From a virus (lineage: Duplodnaviria; Heunggongvirae; Uroviricota; Caudoviricetes), in the IMG/VR virus record IMGVR_UViG_3300025364_000002: a DNA stretch of 15,575 nt; one strand, 5' to 3'. Shown in pieces: positions 1-12,476 of this stretch. The first letter of the stretch is position 1, and every line of letters begins with the position of its first letter. The translations under genes and the position numbers were made by a program. The notes under the pieces were generated by a model, which made no database searches, had not been told where the DNA came from, and saw nothing but the letters and a program-made list of their open reading frames with translations.

Positions 1-4
1 TGGT

Positions 5-124
5 TTATGTTTCAACCTTATCGGTCAGTCTCAACATGCTGAGGATATACCATTGCCTCAATTTATTAGGGACAACTTCTTGGAACATCCAATGTGAATT
101 TGATTGCACGTGATTAGCACGAAT
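5..124 (-). pseudogene. Stranded duplicate of the RNA ligase C-terminus (no start codon)
   Basis: The minus strand translates to IRANHVQSNSHWMFQEVVPNKLRQWYILSMLRLTDKVET*. This parallels the end of the ligase at 716-1345 (YVRANHVTTDERWERNWTPNSLKES*), with RANHV, W and PN-x-L conserved. Confidence 0.8.
111..123. repeat. 13-bp direct repeat TGATTAGCACGAA, copy 1 (left boundary of the LAGLIDADG insertion)
   Basis: Identical to 777-789. Both copies encode the x-RAN-H segment of the ligase on the minus strand. Confidence 0.85.
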
Positions 125-156
125 GCGTGGTAAACCAGTATGTTTATCGTTTGAAC

Positions 157-729
157 ATGATTCTTTCGTTATCAGAAATACAAGCCTATTGGTTAGGCTT
201 TTTGTTTGGAGATGGATATCAAAACGGGTACGAATTAGTTGTGAACCTTGCAGTTAAAGATTACAATCACTTATTTTCATTGAAAAGGGCACTTGATTCA
301 AAACATCCCATCAAAATTATTGATGGCTCAATAGCTTCAATAAGAATTGGAAGTAAGCATTTGTGCAAAGCTCTAACGAAGTTAGGATGCGTTCAAGCCA
401 AAAGCAAAACACTCAAATGGCCCAAAACATTAAAACCGCATCTTCAACGACATTTCATAAGAGGGGTATTTGATGCGGATGGCTGTTTTTATAAGCAAAA
501 GTCTGGACGGACTAAACGTTGGTCTATATATTCAGGGTCCCCAGAATTTTTAGAAGTTATGGCTCAAGTCCTCGCTGGGCATGGTATGCCGACATCAATT
601 AATCAATGTACAATCAATATTACTAAGCAAAAAGTTTTACAGCACATTTATGCTTTTTTATATAAAAAAAGCACTATATATCTACCAAGAAAAAAAGAAA
701 AGTTTGCAACATATATCAACTCTCTTTAA
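157..729 (+). mobile_element. Free-standing double-motif LAGLIDADG homing endonuclease
   Basis: Motif 1 is AYWLGFLFGDG and motif 2 is HFIRGVFDADG. The ORF track starts at GTG 127; ATG 157 (MILSLSEIQAYW) is the more likely start. It is antisense to its neighbours. Confidence 0.9.
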
Positions 730-1345
730 GAGAATTGGGAGTCCAATTTCGTTCCCATCTTTCGTCGGTAGTTACATGATTAGCACGAACATACTTTGCT
801 ACAGATTCCCTAAAATCGTCATAAGCGAAGGAATCATAAAGTCTGATGACGTACCCTTCAGAATTTTCTTCGCCATTCTGGGGCGACCAAGATGCTCTGA
901 TAGCCTCTTCATCATAGAGCCCCACATACAAAACCGGAACATGTTCAATTTCGAGTAGTTGACACCACTCAACCGTAGAACCCCAATCTAAGCAGATGTT
1001 TTCTTCGTTCCAGATCGAGAATGCAAGGAAATATGAGTTGAGTCTTTCATAGGCAATTGAATGTCTGGCAAAGAGATTTTCTCCGCAGATTCGCCATCCT
1101 TCGGGTATATGATGAGATAGACGCCCTTGGAGTGCCTTAACCCAGTTTCGACTGGGGTGGTTCGTCGAAGATGTTGTTCTTGCGTGAATATGGTCTTTAT
1201 ACATGGTTGTGTTTTCGCCATCCATCTTCTCCGTTACTACTACCTTTTTGCCAACAAAATGATCCATCGACTCAAGAATGCTGTCGTCCCGAGTCCCCCC
1301 AGGACTCCAGGGGCAATGATATGTCCGAGGGTATTTGTAATACAT
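716..1345 (-). CDS. ATP-dependent RNA ligase (Rnl2-like, RNA_ligase family)
   Basis: N-terminal KYPRTYH, motif I TEKMDGEN, motif III ICGENL, IIIa FLAFSIW, IV EGYVIR and V AKYVR. A GGAG SD lies upstream. Confidence 0.92.
   Translation of the reverse strand: MYYKYPRTYHCPWSPGGTRDDSILESMDHFVGKKVVVTEKMDGENTTMYKDHIHARTTSSTNHPSRNWVKALQGRLSHHIPEGWRICGENLFARHSIAYERLNSYFLAFSIWNEENICLDWGSTVEWCQLLEIEHVPVLYVGLYDEEAIRASWSPQNGEENSEGYVIRLYDSFAYDDFRESVAKYVRANHVTTDERWERNWTPNSLKES
777..789. repeat. 13-bp direct repeat TGATTAGCACGAA, copy 2 (inside the RNA ligase 3' end)
   Basis: Identical to 111-123; the two copies are 666 bp apart. Confidence 0.85.
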
Positions 1346-1367
1346 GACATTACTCCAGTGATATCAG

Positions 1368-1396
1368 TTTATACCACACGAAAATCGGAAAATCAA
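1368..1396 (-). promoter_or_regulatory. Sigma70-type promoter for the RNA ligase
   Basis: Minus strand TTGATT-17 nt-TATAAA, with TG-n immediately before the -10 box, followed by GGAG and ATG. Confidence 0.7.
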
Positions 1397-1422
1397 CCGA
1401 ATAATGCATATTTGATCAAAAT

Positions 1423-2448
1423 TTATAGTAGTAGATTTTTTACGGTATTTTTAGCATTGGCAGCAGTTTGAAAGATTTTATCTCTGGCTTTTATTGCTAT
1501 TTCTGTATCTGCTTTTTCAAATTTTTTATTGTTCAAGACACTGTCCATCTTAGAAATAAAATTATTTGCTACCGCAACAACAAATTCTTCAGAAGAATTG
1601 TATTGCAATGTCCCGCCATCAAAAATGCCGGCCTTTTCCAAGGCATCCCCGAGAGACTTTATTCCTTGAATGATCCCTTCAACAGATAAGTTATCGACAT
1701 TTACTCCAGGAATTTTTGCACTAACTGTTTTGTCTTTGATGGTTCCATATTTTGCCTGAATAAAGAAATTGACAATATCCTGAAATAGGCTTTCAAAATT
1801 CAGTGATGCGACCTTTTCTTCAGTATGTTTACGAACTCTATAAGGAACTAGAACACCCTTTTGAAGCTTTGCACGAGCGCCTCTATCTCCAATGCTCATC
1901 ATTAAAGCTTCTGCGAGTGCCGCATAAAGCCCACCAGACACAAAACCTTTTACGTTTCTAATTGGAGTGAATCTGGATTTAGCCCAATTGGAATACTTTT
2001 TGTGTGTGACAAAAAAATCAATTTGCACATACTTCCCTGGTTCAATTTCAGCAATTATCACAGGAGTCGTCGCCGCATCACCTTTTGATTCTTCAATGTC
2101 GACGCCTCGGGGTTTGATTTCTCTGAAAAATTCAAACAACTTTTTATTGTAGAACTTTGCAGATATTACTTCATTTTTTCGCTCATCATCGGAGTATTCA
2201 ATCACTGGATATTCAATTAGATAATCAATGTCCCCATAAACATTATTGGGGTTTTCTTCAATATCTTCTTCATAATAATTGCCAGAGCCAATTGGTCGAA
2301 TGGGGTTTATTTCAGGCAACCCTTGATGTTTTAGTTGCAACCATTGATTAAAATCTGCAAGCAGATTTTTGGTGAAGATATCCGCACTTTTTACCAAAAG
2401 TGGCGTAAGAAGAACATCTTGTGTCTTAAGTGACGTCCAACCACCCAT
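1423..2448 (-). CDS. Pol-beta superfamily nucleotidyltransferase, PolX-like core, substrate unknown
   Basis: IGSG...GDIDYLI (GS plus DxD) and a third acid in VQIDFF. The N-terminus may extend upstream (see findings). Confidence 0.7.
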   Translation of the reverse strand: MGGWTSLKTQDVLLTPLLVKSADIFTKNLLADFNQWLQLKHQGLPEINPIRPIGSGNYYEEDIEENPNNVYGDIDYLIEYPVIEYSDDERKNEVISAKFYNKKLFEFFREIKPRGVDIEESKGDAATTPVIIAEIEPGKYVQIDFFVTHKKYSNWAKSRFTPIRNVKGFVSGGLYAALAEALMMSIGDRGARAKLQKGVLVPYRVRKHTEEKVASLNFESLFQDIVNFFIQAKYGTIKDKTVSAKIPGVNVDNLSVEGIIQGIKSLGDALEKAGIFDGGTLQYNSSEEFVVAVANNFISKMDSVLNNKKFEKADTEIAIKARDKIFQTAANAKNTVKNLLL

Positions 2449-2560
2449 TATAATTTGCCCAAACCCAAGTGAAACAATCTCATTCAGTGTTACAGCTTCA
2501 TTTTACAGGATAAACAGCAAACAATAAATCAAGTTTGACCAAGTGTTGATATTTATCCTC

Positions 2561-3280
2561 GTGAGTATCGACATCAAAAGCCTTTCAGTTAAAGAAAAAC
2601 TGAATGACGATATCTGGACGAAGGATAAGAAACTAAAGCCTGAAATTAGAGAAAGGCTTCTTACCCTTGCTGAAGATTTTTATAAAGAGCTTGACATTCC
2701 ATGGGCAGAGCTTGAAGATATTAGGTTTACCGGCTCTCTTGCCAACTACAATTGGTCAAAATACAGTGATGTCGATCTTCATCTCGTTATCGACTACACC
2801 CTTGTTGATGAAAACGTTGATCTTGTTGAAGAATATTTCAAAGCAAGAAAAAGTTTGTGGAATGATTATCACGACATCACCATCCATGGTTTTGACGTCG
2901 AAATATATGTTGAAGATGCTCAAGGAGAGCATTTTTCCTCTGGCGTGTACTCTGTACTGATGGATGAATGGGTAATCGAACCAAAACCGCAAAGTCCAAA
3001 CATCGACAAATTGGCGATAAAAAATAAAGCAAAAGTAATCATGAGGTTGATCGACGATCTTGTTGTTGACAAACTTAAAGAAGGGGATTACGACGGTGCT
3101 ATTAAAGCCGCAGAATTAATGTCGGAAAAAATTAAGAAGATGAGACAGGGTGGTCTTGAATCTGGCGGCGAATACTCAGTAGAAAATCTAACGTTCAAGA
3201 TACTCAGACGAAACGGAACTCTTGATAAGTTGTACGCAACCAAATTGGATGCATACGATAAAATGATGTCAATTGAATAA
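2561..3280 (+). CDS. Pol-beta superfamily nucleotidyltransferase, substrate unknown
   Basis: FTGSLANYNWSKYSDVDLHLVID matches hGS-x10-DhD, with a third acid in FDVEIYVE and a helical C-terminal half. The ORF track starts at GTG 2543; GTG 2561 is preferred. Confidence 0.8.
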   Translation: MSIDIKSLSVKEKLNDDIWTKDKKLKPEIRERLLTLAEDFYKELDIPWAELEDIRFTGSLANYNWSKYSDVDLHLVIDYTLVDENVDLVEEYFKARKSLWNDYHDITIHGFDVEIYVEDAQGEHFSSGVYSVLMDEWVIEPKPQSPNIDKLAIKNKAKVIMRLIDDLVVDKLKEGDYDGAIKAAELMSEKIKKMRQGGLESGGEYSVENLTFKILRRNGTLDKLYATKLDAYDKMMSIE

Positions 3281-3331
3281 ACTTATTTGATTTGTTTGGT
3301 TTTCTCAAGTTTGAAGCTATAATCTCTAGAT

Positions 3332-3987: not shown

Positions 3988-4339
3988 AACTCTCTCCAGA
4001 GACATATTCCCAATAATTGGTCCAATCAAATTGAACAACCACAACCCCTGTGTTGTTTTTTCCGGGCGGTATCGGCACTTCTTCATACCATCTTAGACTT
4101 ACCGGTTCTCCACCTACAAAGAAGTGAAAAAGCCATAGCTCATTATCGATATTTTTATCTTTATGCCAAGGTGGACCACATAGTGCAGCCTTTTCAGAAA
4201 AGAGAAAAAGCACATACGAACCAATATCCATAACATGGTTATGATCAAAAGGATACTTCTGGATAACTCTTAGTAATTTTCCAGGAGTTGGAAGAGAAAC
4301 ATTAGGACTCTTCGCTGTGTCGTCTCTCCATTTCCACAT
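3971..4339 (-). CDS. Hypothetical protein, possible SH3/KOW-like family member
   Basis: 122-aa ORF tiling the operon, with PTPGKLLRV...LFHFFVGGEPVSL. Start uncertain. Confidence 0.6.
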   Translation of the reverse strand: MWKWRDDTAKSPNVSLPTPGKLLRVIQKYPFDHNHVMDIGSYVLFLFSEKAALCGPPWHKDKNIDNELWLFHFFVGGEPVSLRWYEEVPIPPGKNNTGVVVVQFDWTNYWEYVSGESYEIQS

Positions 4340-4730
4340 GTTGTTTAGGATAATCTACCGCTGCAAGCTTTTTCAAAAGCTTTTTGAAATGTTTGATTTC
4401 ATCAACAGCTTCACGATCCCACGTTTCCAGTTTTTCATATTCTTCGTTGGAAACTTCATCCAATCCTTCGTCAAAATATAGGATTTTCTCAATCGCTGCC
4501 TTAGCTCCGCAGATGGCCATCTTGAGATGAAACTCAACTGTTTCTTTCCAGTTTGCACCCTGACTACCTGTTCCTGACGTGGGATGCCAATTATGGCGGG
4601 TGGTGGCCATGACAGCTTCTACCATGTGAAGCTCTGCAAATCTATTACAATATTCGATAAAATCTTTCTTGGTGAGATTGCCGTCTGCAAAATCTTTTTT
4701 CAGCATGTTCATACAAGTTTTTGCGGACAT
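4302..4730 (-). CDS. Hypothetical protein with a WHPTSGTGSQ motif, possibly N-terminally truncated
   Basis: 142-aa ORF tiling the operon, directly downstream of the Thg1 breakpoint. Confidence 0.65.
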   Translation of the reverse strand: MSAKTCMNMLKKDFADGNLTKKDFIEYCNRFAELHMVEAVMATTRHNWHPTSGTGSQGANWKETVEFHLKMAICGAKAAIEKILYFDEGLDEVSNEEYEKLETWDREAVDEIKHFKKLLKKLAAVDYPKQHVEMERRHSEES

Positions 4731-4825
4731 GTCATGTCCCTGGCCCGCATACGATTCGGAAGCACGGTCTTGAACGATGCTTCATACAGTTTCATTCTGT
4801 CGCCTAATGTTGTTTTGTCGGTCAT
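4709..4825 (-). pseudogene. Truncated Thg1-like (tRNA-His guanylyltransferase / 3'-5' polymerase) N-terminal remnant
   Basis: Translates MTDKTTLGDRMKLYEASFKTVLPNRM|RARDMTCPQKLV*. GDRMKxYE-x6-LPxRM is the typical start of bacterial Thg1-like proteins, but the following PVIxRxDG catalytic segment is absent. The ATG overlaps the upstream TGA (ATGA). Confidence 0.75.
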
Positions 4826-5094
4826 AGCAGTTTTCCAGTAAACAAAATTCTAAGTCTCTTACCTAGGCCATGAACACAATCTCTTTCTTCTATGTCGTGT
4901 CTTAGCTTATCAAAACAGGTCTTGCATAAAACCAATTTTCCTGGACTATTAAACTTGTAATCGTTCATCCAGCGTCCAACCCCTAATGTATTTTCTTCGC
5001 TATCACAATTTGCGCAACGACACGGTGCTGTACGATAACTGTCTCTTCTCGGAGTTGAGGGTGGTGTTCGCCAAGGGTAAGGTGTTTTAATCAT
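4822..5094 (-). CDS. Small putative zinc-binding protein
   Basis: CRCANC...CKTC (two CxxC pairs); 90 aa. Confidence 0.6.
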   Translation of the reverse strand: MIKTPYPWRTPPSTPRRDSYRTAPCRCANCDSEENTLGVGRWMNDYKFNSPGKLVLCKTCFDKLRHDIEERDCVHGLGKRLRILFTGKLL

Positions 5095-5102
5095 AAATCT
5101 TT

Positions 5103-5630
5103 CTATACGTAAATTTTTCTATAATATGTTTCAAGCTTTGGCCATTTTGGACCTGGGTGACCGTTCATTCTATGGGTTCCAGAGATAAACCCCATTGTCT
5201 GCCGAAGGTATGTTTTTGCTCGCCTATGTTTTTTTCTTTTGGAGAATCGACCATAGACTCGTCGAGCTTCATCCAAAGTAAAAAACGCATCATCACCAAT
5301 ATAAGCAGCGTGTCCAATGGGCCAATCAACCCAAGGGAGTATATTATAAATAAATGTTCCCTTTAGAGCCTCCAAATCAATTGATCTGTTTGTTTCGGGA
5401 TTTTCATCCCAAATGATCCAGGTACTATTTTTCCGCTCTCCAATGAAATCAGGGAAATTGTGAACGTAGGTCACATCTTGCACTTTAGCCTTCACATAGA
5501 AGGAAGAACAAAATACAAACAATTCATCACCAGGTCGAACAATCCTTCTGACCGGGCACGATTCTGAAATTGGATAATTTTCTGGGTTGTATTCGGTCAT
5601 CTGTATGGTCCTGAAAAACGAGATTGACAT
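5103..5630 (-). CDS. Hypothetical protein
   Basis: 175-aa ORF tiling the operon, with VRPGDELFV and a basic C-terminus. Confidence 0.7.
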   Translation of the reverse strand: MSISFFRTIQMTEYNPENYPISESCPVRRIVRPGDELFVFCSSFYVKAKVQDVTYVHNFPDFIGERKNSTWIIWDENPETNRSIDLEALKGTFIYNILPWVDWPIGHAAYIGDDAFFTLDEARRVYGRFSKRKKHRRAKTYLRQTMGFISGTHRMNGHPGPKWPKLETYYRKIYV

Positions 5631-11660: not shown

Positions 11661-11689
11661 ACCATATCACCTTGAAGGAAAAGTTTGAA
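11661..11689 (-). promoter_or_regulatory. Candidate extended -10 promoter for the phosphoesterase, supplied by the HEG insert and probably leaderless
   Basis: TTCAAA-17 nt-TATGGT with TG-n; 6 nt to ATG 11654. Confidence 0.45.
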
Positions 11690-12408
11690 TGTATAAACTA
11701 TATTGTTTATTTGAATCAGAAACAGGTCAAGTGTTTTACATAGGAATTACTCGGAGAACTTTAAAGGAAAGACTTCAGTCGCATACTTGGAATTCGCATT
11801 GTAAAATAAACAGAAGATGAAAATCAACAACTCCTAAATCAAATTATATTCGTGAATTAAAAACTAAAAAGAAAAAATTTGAAATTGTTGGTTTGTTGGA
11901 ATCTGCTGACAAAACCTATATTGAAAATGCCGAACGTCGCTATATCGCTTTTGCAAAAAGAATGAAATTTAATTTAACTAATGCCACTTCGGGCGGCCAA
12001 GGAATACAGGAATATAAACATAAACCAGAAACAATAGAAAGGTTACGCAAACTAAATTCTGGCAAAAACAATCCTCAGTGGGGCAAAACTCCTTCAAAGG
12101 AAACTAGAGCAAAACAACGTAAAGCTCTTAAAGGCAAGCCTAGACCACGTCCAAAAGATTATAAAGGATGGAAACGTCGAATTTCAAAAAATCATGCTGA
12201 TGTCTCTGGTAAAAATAATCCAATGTTTGGTAAACCTGCTCCAACACGAAAAAGAACTATTCAATATGATTTGAATGGCAATAAAATTGCCGAATTTGCA
12301 AGTGCTACGGCTGCTGCCAAAGCTATTAATTTATCCCGAGTAACAATTTCTAATTGTGCTTCTGGTTATTCATCAACAGCTGGTGGGTTTGTTTGGAAGT
12401 ACGAATAA
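11689..12408 (+). mobile_element. Free-standing GIY-YIG homing endonuclease with NUMOD3 repeats and a C-terminal NUMOD1/IENR1 HTH; in-frame TGA at 11818-11820
   Basis: From ATG 11689: MYKLYCLFESETGQVFYIGITRRTLKERLQSH...NRR*KSTTPK...AERRYI...NLTN, in frame with track ORF 11893-12408. NUMOD3-like repeats SGKNNPQWGK and SGKNNPMFGK; C-terminal QYDLNGNKIAEFASATAAAK...GGFVWKY. Confidence 0.88.
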
Positions 12409-12427
12409 TTGTTTTAACACGTGCCAT
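12404..12427 (-). pseudogene. Stranded duplicate of the phosphoesterase N-terminus
   Basis: TAAGGTGA SD followed by ATG GCA CGT GTT AAA ACA ATT ATT = MARVKTII, versus the current start MVRKKVIV(CGDIHG). The frame then runs into antisense HEG sequence. Confidence 0.55.
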
Positions 12428-12476
12428 GACTCACCTTATCAAGTTTTTGGCGATTTGTAAACCGGGAAAGTTTTAT

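Follow-up and report, generated by a model that had tools for sequence, protein, structure and literature searches.

A probable homing-endonuclease cassette carrying a substitute gene end in the RNA ligase gene of an uncultured phage

The analysis concerns a 15,575-nucleotide stretch of viral DNA (IMG/VR record IMGVR_UViG_3300025364_000002; the whole stretch is called the window), in which an RNA ligase gene of the PF09414 family converges with a LAGLIDADG endonuclease gene on the opposite strand. Very probably, positions 125–776 are a free-standing homing-endonuclease cassette within the 3′ end of the ligase gene, which is left as a hybrid with a foreign tail, the native tail being displaced. 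The cassette measures 652 bp in the window; its full form has about 1042 bp. The predicted insertion point is the pair of Val-Arg codons that closes the nucleotidyltransferase domain (AKYV/RxNHV). The host is an uncultured phage, probably a large one; ligase homologues are common in very large phages. Read in the sense of the ligase, the cassette would comprise a full substitute tail with its own stop, an opposite-strand zinc-finger LAGLIDADG gene whose 3′ end overlaps this tail, and a scrap of an older tail. The ligase would be translated as a hybrid of native body and foreign tail with no need for splicing, and the native tail would lie downstream, start-less and decaying.

The ligase open reading frame (716–1345, minus strand) encodes 209 residues and ends in ...AKYVRANHVTTDERWERNWTPNSLKES followed by the stop. 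It matches Pfam PF09414 RNA_ligase over residues 34–186 (E 2.3e-34), with the profile ending at ...AKYV, and phrog_24030 ‘RNA ligase’ (E 1e-69). Motif I (EKMDGEN) is present, with K40, D42 and G43 invariant. The AlphaFold2 (AF2) model of the protein (pLDDT 93.2) has a nucleotidyltransferase fold; the top Foldseek matches are T4 Rnl2, the Naegleria RNA ligase (NgrRnl) and archaeal Rnl3 (probability 1.00, TM ~0.5). A phmmer search of the ligase against PDB sequences gave no match, and NCBIfam had no model matching either the ligase or the endonuclease. The native body, residues 1 to ~185, lies at 790–1345 (minus strand) and runs from motif I through motif V (AKYV), as judged from PF09414, the identity to the homologue P0004 and the AF2/Foldseek comparison; motif V was assigned from where the Pfam domain ends, from residues invariant in the family and, by analogy with T4 Rnl2, from the spacing, rather than from a residue-level structural alignment. 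The putative replacement C-terminus (716–776, minus strand; ...VTTDERWERNWTPNSLKES and a stop), identified by the tail comparisons below, continues in frame with the body. Across 65 homologues, R187, H190, W197 and N204 do not vary, and all four are retained in the expressed foreign tail. Given these invariant residues, the tail is likely to be needed for enzyme function, and an insertion here that brought no replacement would come at a cost.

The body and the tail of the expressed ligase follow different relatives among 119 homologues, whose tails were scored over 18 positions. The body (residues 1–186) is 78–85% identical to its nearest relatives. Compared with P0004, the window ligase (P0001) is 84–86% identical in each segment through residues 1–150 and agrees at 30/36 positions in residues 150–186, then at only 11/21 in the tail. 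Compared with P0017, it is 56–58% identical in the body segments (~60% over the whole body) and agrees at 19/23 positions in the tail, counting RANHV. The closest bodies (P0004–P0009 and P0016, 66–85% identical) all have tails of the form ...HV-Q-[ST]-D-x-HWMF-x-x-[VI]VPN.... The expressed tail agrees with those of the nearest body relatives at 5–8 of the 18 positions (5/18 for P0005); its best match among the 119 is P0017 with 14/18, the next best reaching 10/18. The start-less frame beyond the endonuclease gene (5–124, minus strand) has the near-relative tail, with 17/18 to P0005 and 14/18 to both P0006 and P0016. The DNA past the shared RANHV codons gives the same pairing, at 19/57 nucleotides (33%) between the expressed tail and the remnant, 40/57 (70%) between the expressed tail and P0017 and 50/57 (88%) between the remnant and P0005. 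Because the body tracks the P0004-type relatives while the tail tracks the distant P0017, we read the expressed ligase as a chimera of two lineages, with the predicted breakpoint at or just before residue 187. The putative donor lineage is represented by P0017 alone. A tail-only protein search (residues 165–209) returned just the ligase itself and one other protein, P0191, whose tail is of the ordinary kind, and neither an endonuclease nor a remnant was found at the locus of P0017 itself (L003).

An earlier note on this DNA, made without database searches, had described the ligase ending and the start-less frame beyond the endonuclease, and both read as it stated (716–1345 and 5–124). It had stated that a ligase fused to the start-less frame would be nearer the usual family ending, which agrees with the 14–17 of 18 positions shared with near-relative tails, and it had suggested asking whether homologues resemble either tail; they do, P0005, P0006 and P0016 resembling the remnant and P0017 the expressed tail. 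Its proposal that the cassette brings its own C-terminus holds in that the tail is foreign; the description of this tail as recoded is better replaced by that of a homologous tail from another ligase lineage, given the 40/57 nucleotides shared with P0017. Overall, the facts set out in the note are borne out and its interpretation is supported.

The displaced C-terminus has no start codon and reads I-RANHVQSNSHWMFQEVVPNKLRQ..., followed by 15 more codons up to a stop at 5–7. The ancestral TAG stop, present in the gene of P0005 (L004), is TGG at 50–52 (minus strand) of the window, and the remnant frame therefore continues. The same phage is found in two other assemblies at >99.7% identity (L001, ENA k141_8531, 43.8 kb; L002, a JGI contig), and both junctions are identical in the three. 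The gene order in L001 is ligase, antisense endonuclease, remnant, 24 bp and DNA_pol_A. The flanking genes are kept in the endonuclease-free syntenic contigs L006–L009 (ligase 66% identical) and L010 (68%), where the ligase stop is followed by 40–49 bp and then DNA_pol_A; the polA proteins of the syntenic relatives are 48–62% identical. A comparison with endonuclease-free relatives had been proposed in the earlier note, and in all of L006–L010 the ligase is unbroken and directly precedes DNA_pol_A. The endonuclease is thus polymorphic among related genomes: L001 and L002 carry it, and the syntenic L006–L010 do not. Positions 5–19 of the window form a 15-nucleotide match to the ligase-polA spacer of L010. 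As DNA_pol_A adjoins the remnant, its end matches the L010 spacer and its coding part matches near-relative tails, we take the remnant to be the original end of the ligase gene, in its original place and beginning to decay. A blastn search of window positions 1–3300 against published phages gave one weak match of 168 bp only, and a search for relatives of P0001 in metagenome and viral contigs gave just 47–53% relatives, and no endonuclease followed the ligase in any of them. The closest ligases without an endonuclease are P0005 (on contig L004) and P0004 (on L005), and both contigs end 2–14 nucleotides from the ligase stop; these ends could be assembly breaks at a polymorphic site or chance in short contigs.

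The two tails begin with a direct repeat. Just two exact copies of the 13-mer TGATTAGCACGAA exist in the window, on the plus strand at 111–123 and 777–789; in 200 shuffles, 0.03 matches with at most one mismatch were expected, and none of the shuffles reached two. The repeat search extends the pair to 16 nucleotides with one mismatch (108–123 and 774–789), at a spacing of 666 bp. On the sense strand of the ligase, the copy at 777–789 reads TT CGT GCT AAT CA, corresponding to codons V-R-A-N-H, and marks the start of the duplicated tail segment; the native tail remnant begins at the copy at 111–123. The earlier note had reported an exact 13-bp repeat bracketing the endonuclease at a distance of 666 bp. 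The repeat and the bracketing are correct, but the distance is specific to the window, the spacing being 1056 bp in L001 and L002. The repeat might be a target-site duplication. More simply, it would represent the conserved first codons that two homologous tails have in common, which the crossover may have homogenised.

The endonuclease gene core is located at 157–729 on the plus strand, antisense to the ligase, with an in-frame GTG further upstream at 127. The reading frame (127/157–729) carries both LAGLIDADG motifs, LGFLFGDG and IRGVFDADG, and matches PF14528 (E 2.4e-9); in 19 homologues, D138/G139 and D225, D227 and G228 do not vary. The final 14 nucleotides of the gene (716–729) overlap the replacement ligase tail. 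The AF2 model of the full-length protein (pLDDT 90.6) has a double-motif LAGLIDADG fold, and I-Tsp061I, I-AniI and I-DmoI are among its top Foldseek matches (E 1e-6 to 1e-9). As shown by assembly comparison and the family alignment, the copy in the window is N-terminally deleted: it lacks 390 in-frame bp between positions 171 and 172 that are carried by L001 and L002 (L001:5465–5854). The deletion removes all four Cys-rich FCS-type zinc-finger repeats, whose cysteines are invariant in the endonuclease family alignment, together with the likely true start (MKYQEP...), so that an upstream in-frame ATG (157) is now fused to the LAGLIDADG core. No microhomology is present at the junction. Having lost its zinc-finger half, the window copy may be degenerating; in-frame deletions in zinc-finger DNA-binding repeats have been reported for phage endonucleases (Barth et al. 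2023, PMC10448857). The zinc-finger half itself (L001:4907–5836, residues 2–116) matches phrog_1271, annotated as HNH endonuclease (E 1e-8), and the zinc-finger DNA-binding module seems to be common to phage endonucleases with different catalytic domains.

A second, older and shorter ligase fragment lies between the endonuclease start and the native remnant. Positions 148–168 (minus strand, 21 nucleotides) read R-K-N-H-V-Q-T, and in L001 and L002 this is preceded by Y-stop, so that the fragment would be a degraded copy of Y-V-R-K-N-H-V-Q-T. It is located 22 nucleotides upstream of the ATG of the full-length endonuclease, and the sole remnant at each of three loci in other phages (L011, L014 and L015, described below) is homologous and placed at a similar distance. 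Some 24 unrelated nucleotides (125–147 as read from the sequence, the spacer that forms the far end of the cassette) separate it from the native remnant. We infer that 148–168 is a scrap of the tail of a previous host’s ligase that travelled with the cassette; the match spans seven residues, and its position, its strand and the parallel loci make this reading credible.

The arrangement recurs in other phages. The nearest endonuclease homologues are 37–50% identical and have an N-terminal array of Cys-rich FCS-type zinc fingers. We inspected the contexts of seven further endonuclease lineages; L011–13 and L015 are from related phages (endonucleases 74% and ligase bodies 66% identical). Six of the seven converge with an RNA ligase 3′ end and five of the seven have a remnant. 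The endonucleases of L011–13, L014, L015, L105 and L106/107 (40–48% identical) converge with a PF09414 ligase with a 3′ overlap of 20–74 nucleotides, in gene neighbourhoods that differ from one another. Upstream of each of these five endonucleases, the ligase strand bears a start-less remnant whose first codon is the same Arg codon in every case, mostly with the TT of the Val codon before it. L014, L105 and L106 have intact remnants; those of L011 and L015 are broken by stops or frameshifts. The new tails of the latter two no longer encode RxNHV (KYVG-PKFKS...), which is how a target-destroying replacement would be expected to look. The ligase bodies of the occupied loci are 31–51% identical to one another, except for the related pair L011–13/L015, and the common insertion point is therefore not a matter of inherited synteny. 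In six lineages, including the window, the zinc-finger LAGLIDADG clade is associated with ligase 3′ ends at a conserved insertion point. A scan of IMG/VR with the endonuclease alignment gave mostly generic LAGLIDADG genes, L016 being the one informative locus; no ligase was near any of 79 more distant LAGLIDADG loci, which lack the zinc fingers.

Two further observations concern these ligases and their surroundings. In two endonuclease-free ligases (L098:3538–3621 and L104:3538–3636, 51–52% identical), VRxNHVQTD is replaced by VSGNFIIGD or VSSRFQIGD; the altered tails resemble the new tails of L011 and L015 and may be resistant alleles that remained after loss of the endonuclease. In L106, an IS605 OrfB/TnpB-like gene (Cas12f1-like_TNB, 4336–5598) is located directly upstream of the hybrid ligase.

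Homing is established to proceed by a double-strand break in the empty allele, which is repaired from the occupied one. For the ligase locus, the enzyme would be predicted to recognise the conserved DNA around AAG-TAT-GTT-CGN-...-AAY-CAY-GT and to cut endonuclease-free ligase alleles there; the insertion point conserved across six lineages is indirect evidence for such cutting. Repair of the break from an occupied allele would then copy the cassette into the empty one, with the ligase body as the homology arm on one side and the native tail and downstream DNA on the other. The occupied allele would escape cutting because neither junction retains the whole site.

Several observations weigh against this account. 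The expressed allele keeps native sequence for 13 nucleotides past the Val-Arg insertion point, so that a short recognition site centred on Val-Arg would leave the occupied allele unprotected, and immunity hinges on how far the site extends. No endonuclease-free allele of the same phage was found when a near-identical allele was sought in the contig collections. No close donor was found either, the nearest endonuclease homologue being 48% identical and the tail of P0017 just 70% identical in DNA. The association also has exceptions: the endonuclease of L016 (39% identical) converges with a ligase, yet there is no clear remnant, and that of L108 (1817–3319, on a 496-kb contig; 38% identical, two zinc fingers) is divergent, 24 nucleotides upstream of the start of a complete ligase, with no remnant. 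Finally, L014, L105 and L106 have new tails that are rather similar to their remnants (12–16 of ~22 positions), and a foreign origin of the new tail is not demonstrated there.

Other explanations of the locus were weighed against the same data. The two tails could have arisen by local duplication, the ligase 3′ end having been copied in place, for example by break repair, with the endonuclease landing between the copies and the expressed copy diverging in situ, so that nothing would be foreign. The exact 13-nucleotide start common to both copies is what such an event would leave, and the moderate likeness of the two tails in L014, L105 and L106 points the same way. However, the expressed tail agrees at 14/18 with the rare P0017 type, compared with at most 10/18 for the 118 other homologues, and the remnant is 88% identical in DNA to P0005 whereas the copies are 33% identical to each other. 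Duplication would need extreme, one-sided and convergent change to produce this pattern, and we consider it improbable.

The polarity could also be the reverse, with the expressed tail native and the endonuclease having arrived past the ligase stop together with a piece of the P0005-like tail of a previous host (5–124). The scrap of an earlier host’s tail at 148–168 indicates that tail pieces do travel on that side of the endonuclease. Yet the nearest body relatives (P0004–P0009 and P0016) all have the HWMF-type tail of the remnant, the remnant is contiguous with the native spacer (including the 15-nucleotide L010 match) and polA, and the endonuclease overlaps the expressed tail by 14 nucleotides rather than the remnant. 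On these grounds, reversed polarity is decidedly improbable.

A self-splicing intron with an antisense endonuclease gene would remove 125–776 from the mRNA and give the ligase the tail encoded at 5–124. The remnant frame is still open in the window, and deletion of one repeat copy with the intervening segment indeed gives a seamless ligase. Nevertheless, no Rfam family (group I and group II introns included) was found on either strand of window positions 1–1500 at E ≤ 1, the upstream frame runs into a complete tail with all the invariant residues and a stop, and the remnant has lost its ancestral stop. Moreover, the remnants of L011 and L015 are frameshifted or broken by stops, which would be intolerable in a used exon. 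Splicing is accordingly a very implausible explanation. An intein is ruled out since the endonuclease is encoded on the strand opposite to the host gene. An assembly artefact, in which a chimeric contig would combine two ligase alleles on either side of an unrelated endonuclease gene, deserves almost no credence: the contigs are metagenomic and the window differs from the other assemblies by the 390-bp indel, but three assemblies of different origin agree at both junctions and the same layout recurs in unrelated phage contigs.

If the locus is a homing cassette with a substitute gene end, the tail-to-tail overlap may have a further role. As the sole working C-terminus of the ligase would lie in the cassette and overlaps the 3′ end of the endonuclease gene, a clean loss of the endonuclease would kill the ligase. 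The overlap would then act as a retention (addiction) device of a clade specialised on one ligase codon pair, which hops between lineages, swaps tails and leaves nested remnants as a record of its travels. We put this forward tentatively, as a possibility that is rather doubtful. Were it true, the element would be able to decay only from the far 5′ end, where the 390-bp deletion of the window is located, and its hops would span phage lineages with ligases 31–51% identical.

Elsewhere in the window, a GIY-YIG-like plus-strand frame (YIGIT...R...E...N; 11689–12440) with one in-frame TGA lies antisense between the ClpP and phosphoesterase genes. A short minus-strand frame near 12400–12440 (MARVKTII) resembles the phosphoesterase start MVRKKVIV, which makes the site a possible second terminus swap in the window.

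A spare gene end would be a third way for a free-standing endonuclease to reside inside an essential-looking phage gene, besides residence in an intron or intein and the splitting of the gene into two subunits. It would explain how the most conserved, and so most reliable, enzyme sequence can be targeted without cost to the phage. For annotation, the consequence is that a 40-codon fragment of real coding sequence is left unannotated; for phylogeny, ligase trees and recombination analyses will be misleading if the tail is included. The endonucleases form a natural set of LAGLIDADG enzymes with a zinc-finger array and, presumably, one common target motif, and may interest researchers on meganuclease specificity and engineering.

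A full-text literature search of limited extent gave no description of terminal replacement in phages. Intragenic free-standing endonucleases are known in T4 (mobA in gene 39/60), Aeh1 (mobE in nrdA) and phage 25 (a seg-like insertion in gene 43) (Edgell et al. 2010, PMC2988022). As in the ligase gene, the endonuclease there is located in a conserved, critical region of an enzyme, without an intron or intein, and the function of the host gene is kept (for the ligase, this is a prediction). However, each of those genes has been split by its insertion and yields two polypeptides, which reassemble, whereas the ligase would remain unsplit, its downstream part replaced by a portable copy and the original discarded; the enzymes there are of the HNH or GIY-YIG type, that at the ligase LAGLIDADG. 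In T4, the Seg and Mob endonucleases promote intronless homing with co-conversion, and nuclease genes are found at recombination boundaries (Barth et al. 2023, PMC10448857). The ligase-associated endonuclease likewise marks the boundary at which a flank of foreign ancestry begins. Co-conversion replaces homologous sequence without leaving a duplicate, but at the ligase locus the replaced segment persists as a remnant.

The closest parallel is outside phages, in the ‘gene hybrids’ formed by mobile ORFs in fungal mitochondria, reported for atp6, atp9, cox2 and nad3 of Glomus sp. (Beaudet et al. 2013, PMC3630166), a paper that also cites atp6 of Allomyces macrogynus as a further gene hybrid. In both settings an endonuclease ORF (LAGLIDADG or GIY-YIG in the mitochondrial cases) is located in the 3′ part of a gene, the inserted C-terminus continues the frame of the gene core while the native one has been moved downstream, and the native copy is closest to near relatives whereas the inserted copy is phylogenetically foreign. 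In the mitochondrial hybrids the foreign C-terminus is expressed together with the core. The differences are the host, a phage rather than a mitochondrion, and the orientation: the mitochondrial endonucleases are on the same strand as the gene and often in phase with it, whereas the phage endonuclease is antisense and overlaps the new tail in a tail-to-tail manner. Further differences on the phage side are the zinc-finger array at the N-terminus of the ligase-associated enzyme, the occupation of the same target codon in at least six divergent ligase lineages and the nesting of remnants. In our reading, the ligase locus is a recurrent phage counterpart, with the endonuclease antisense, of a mechanism known from mitochondria.

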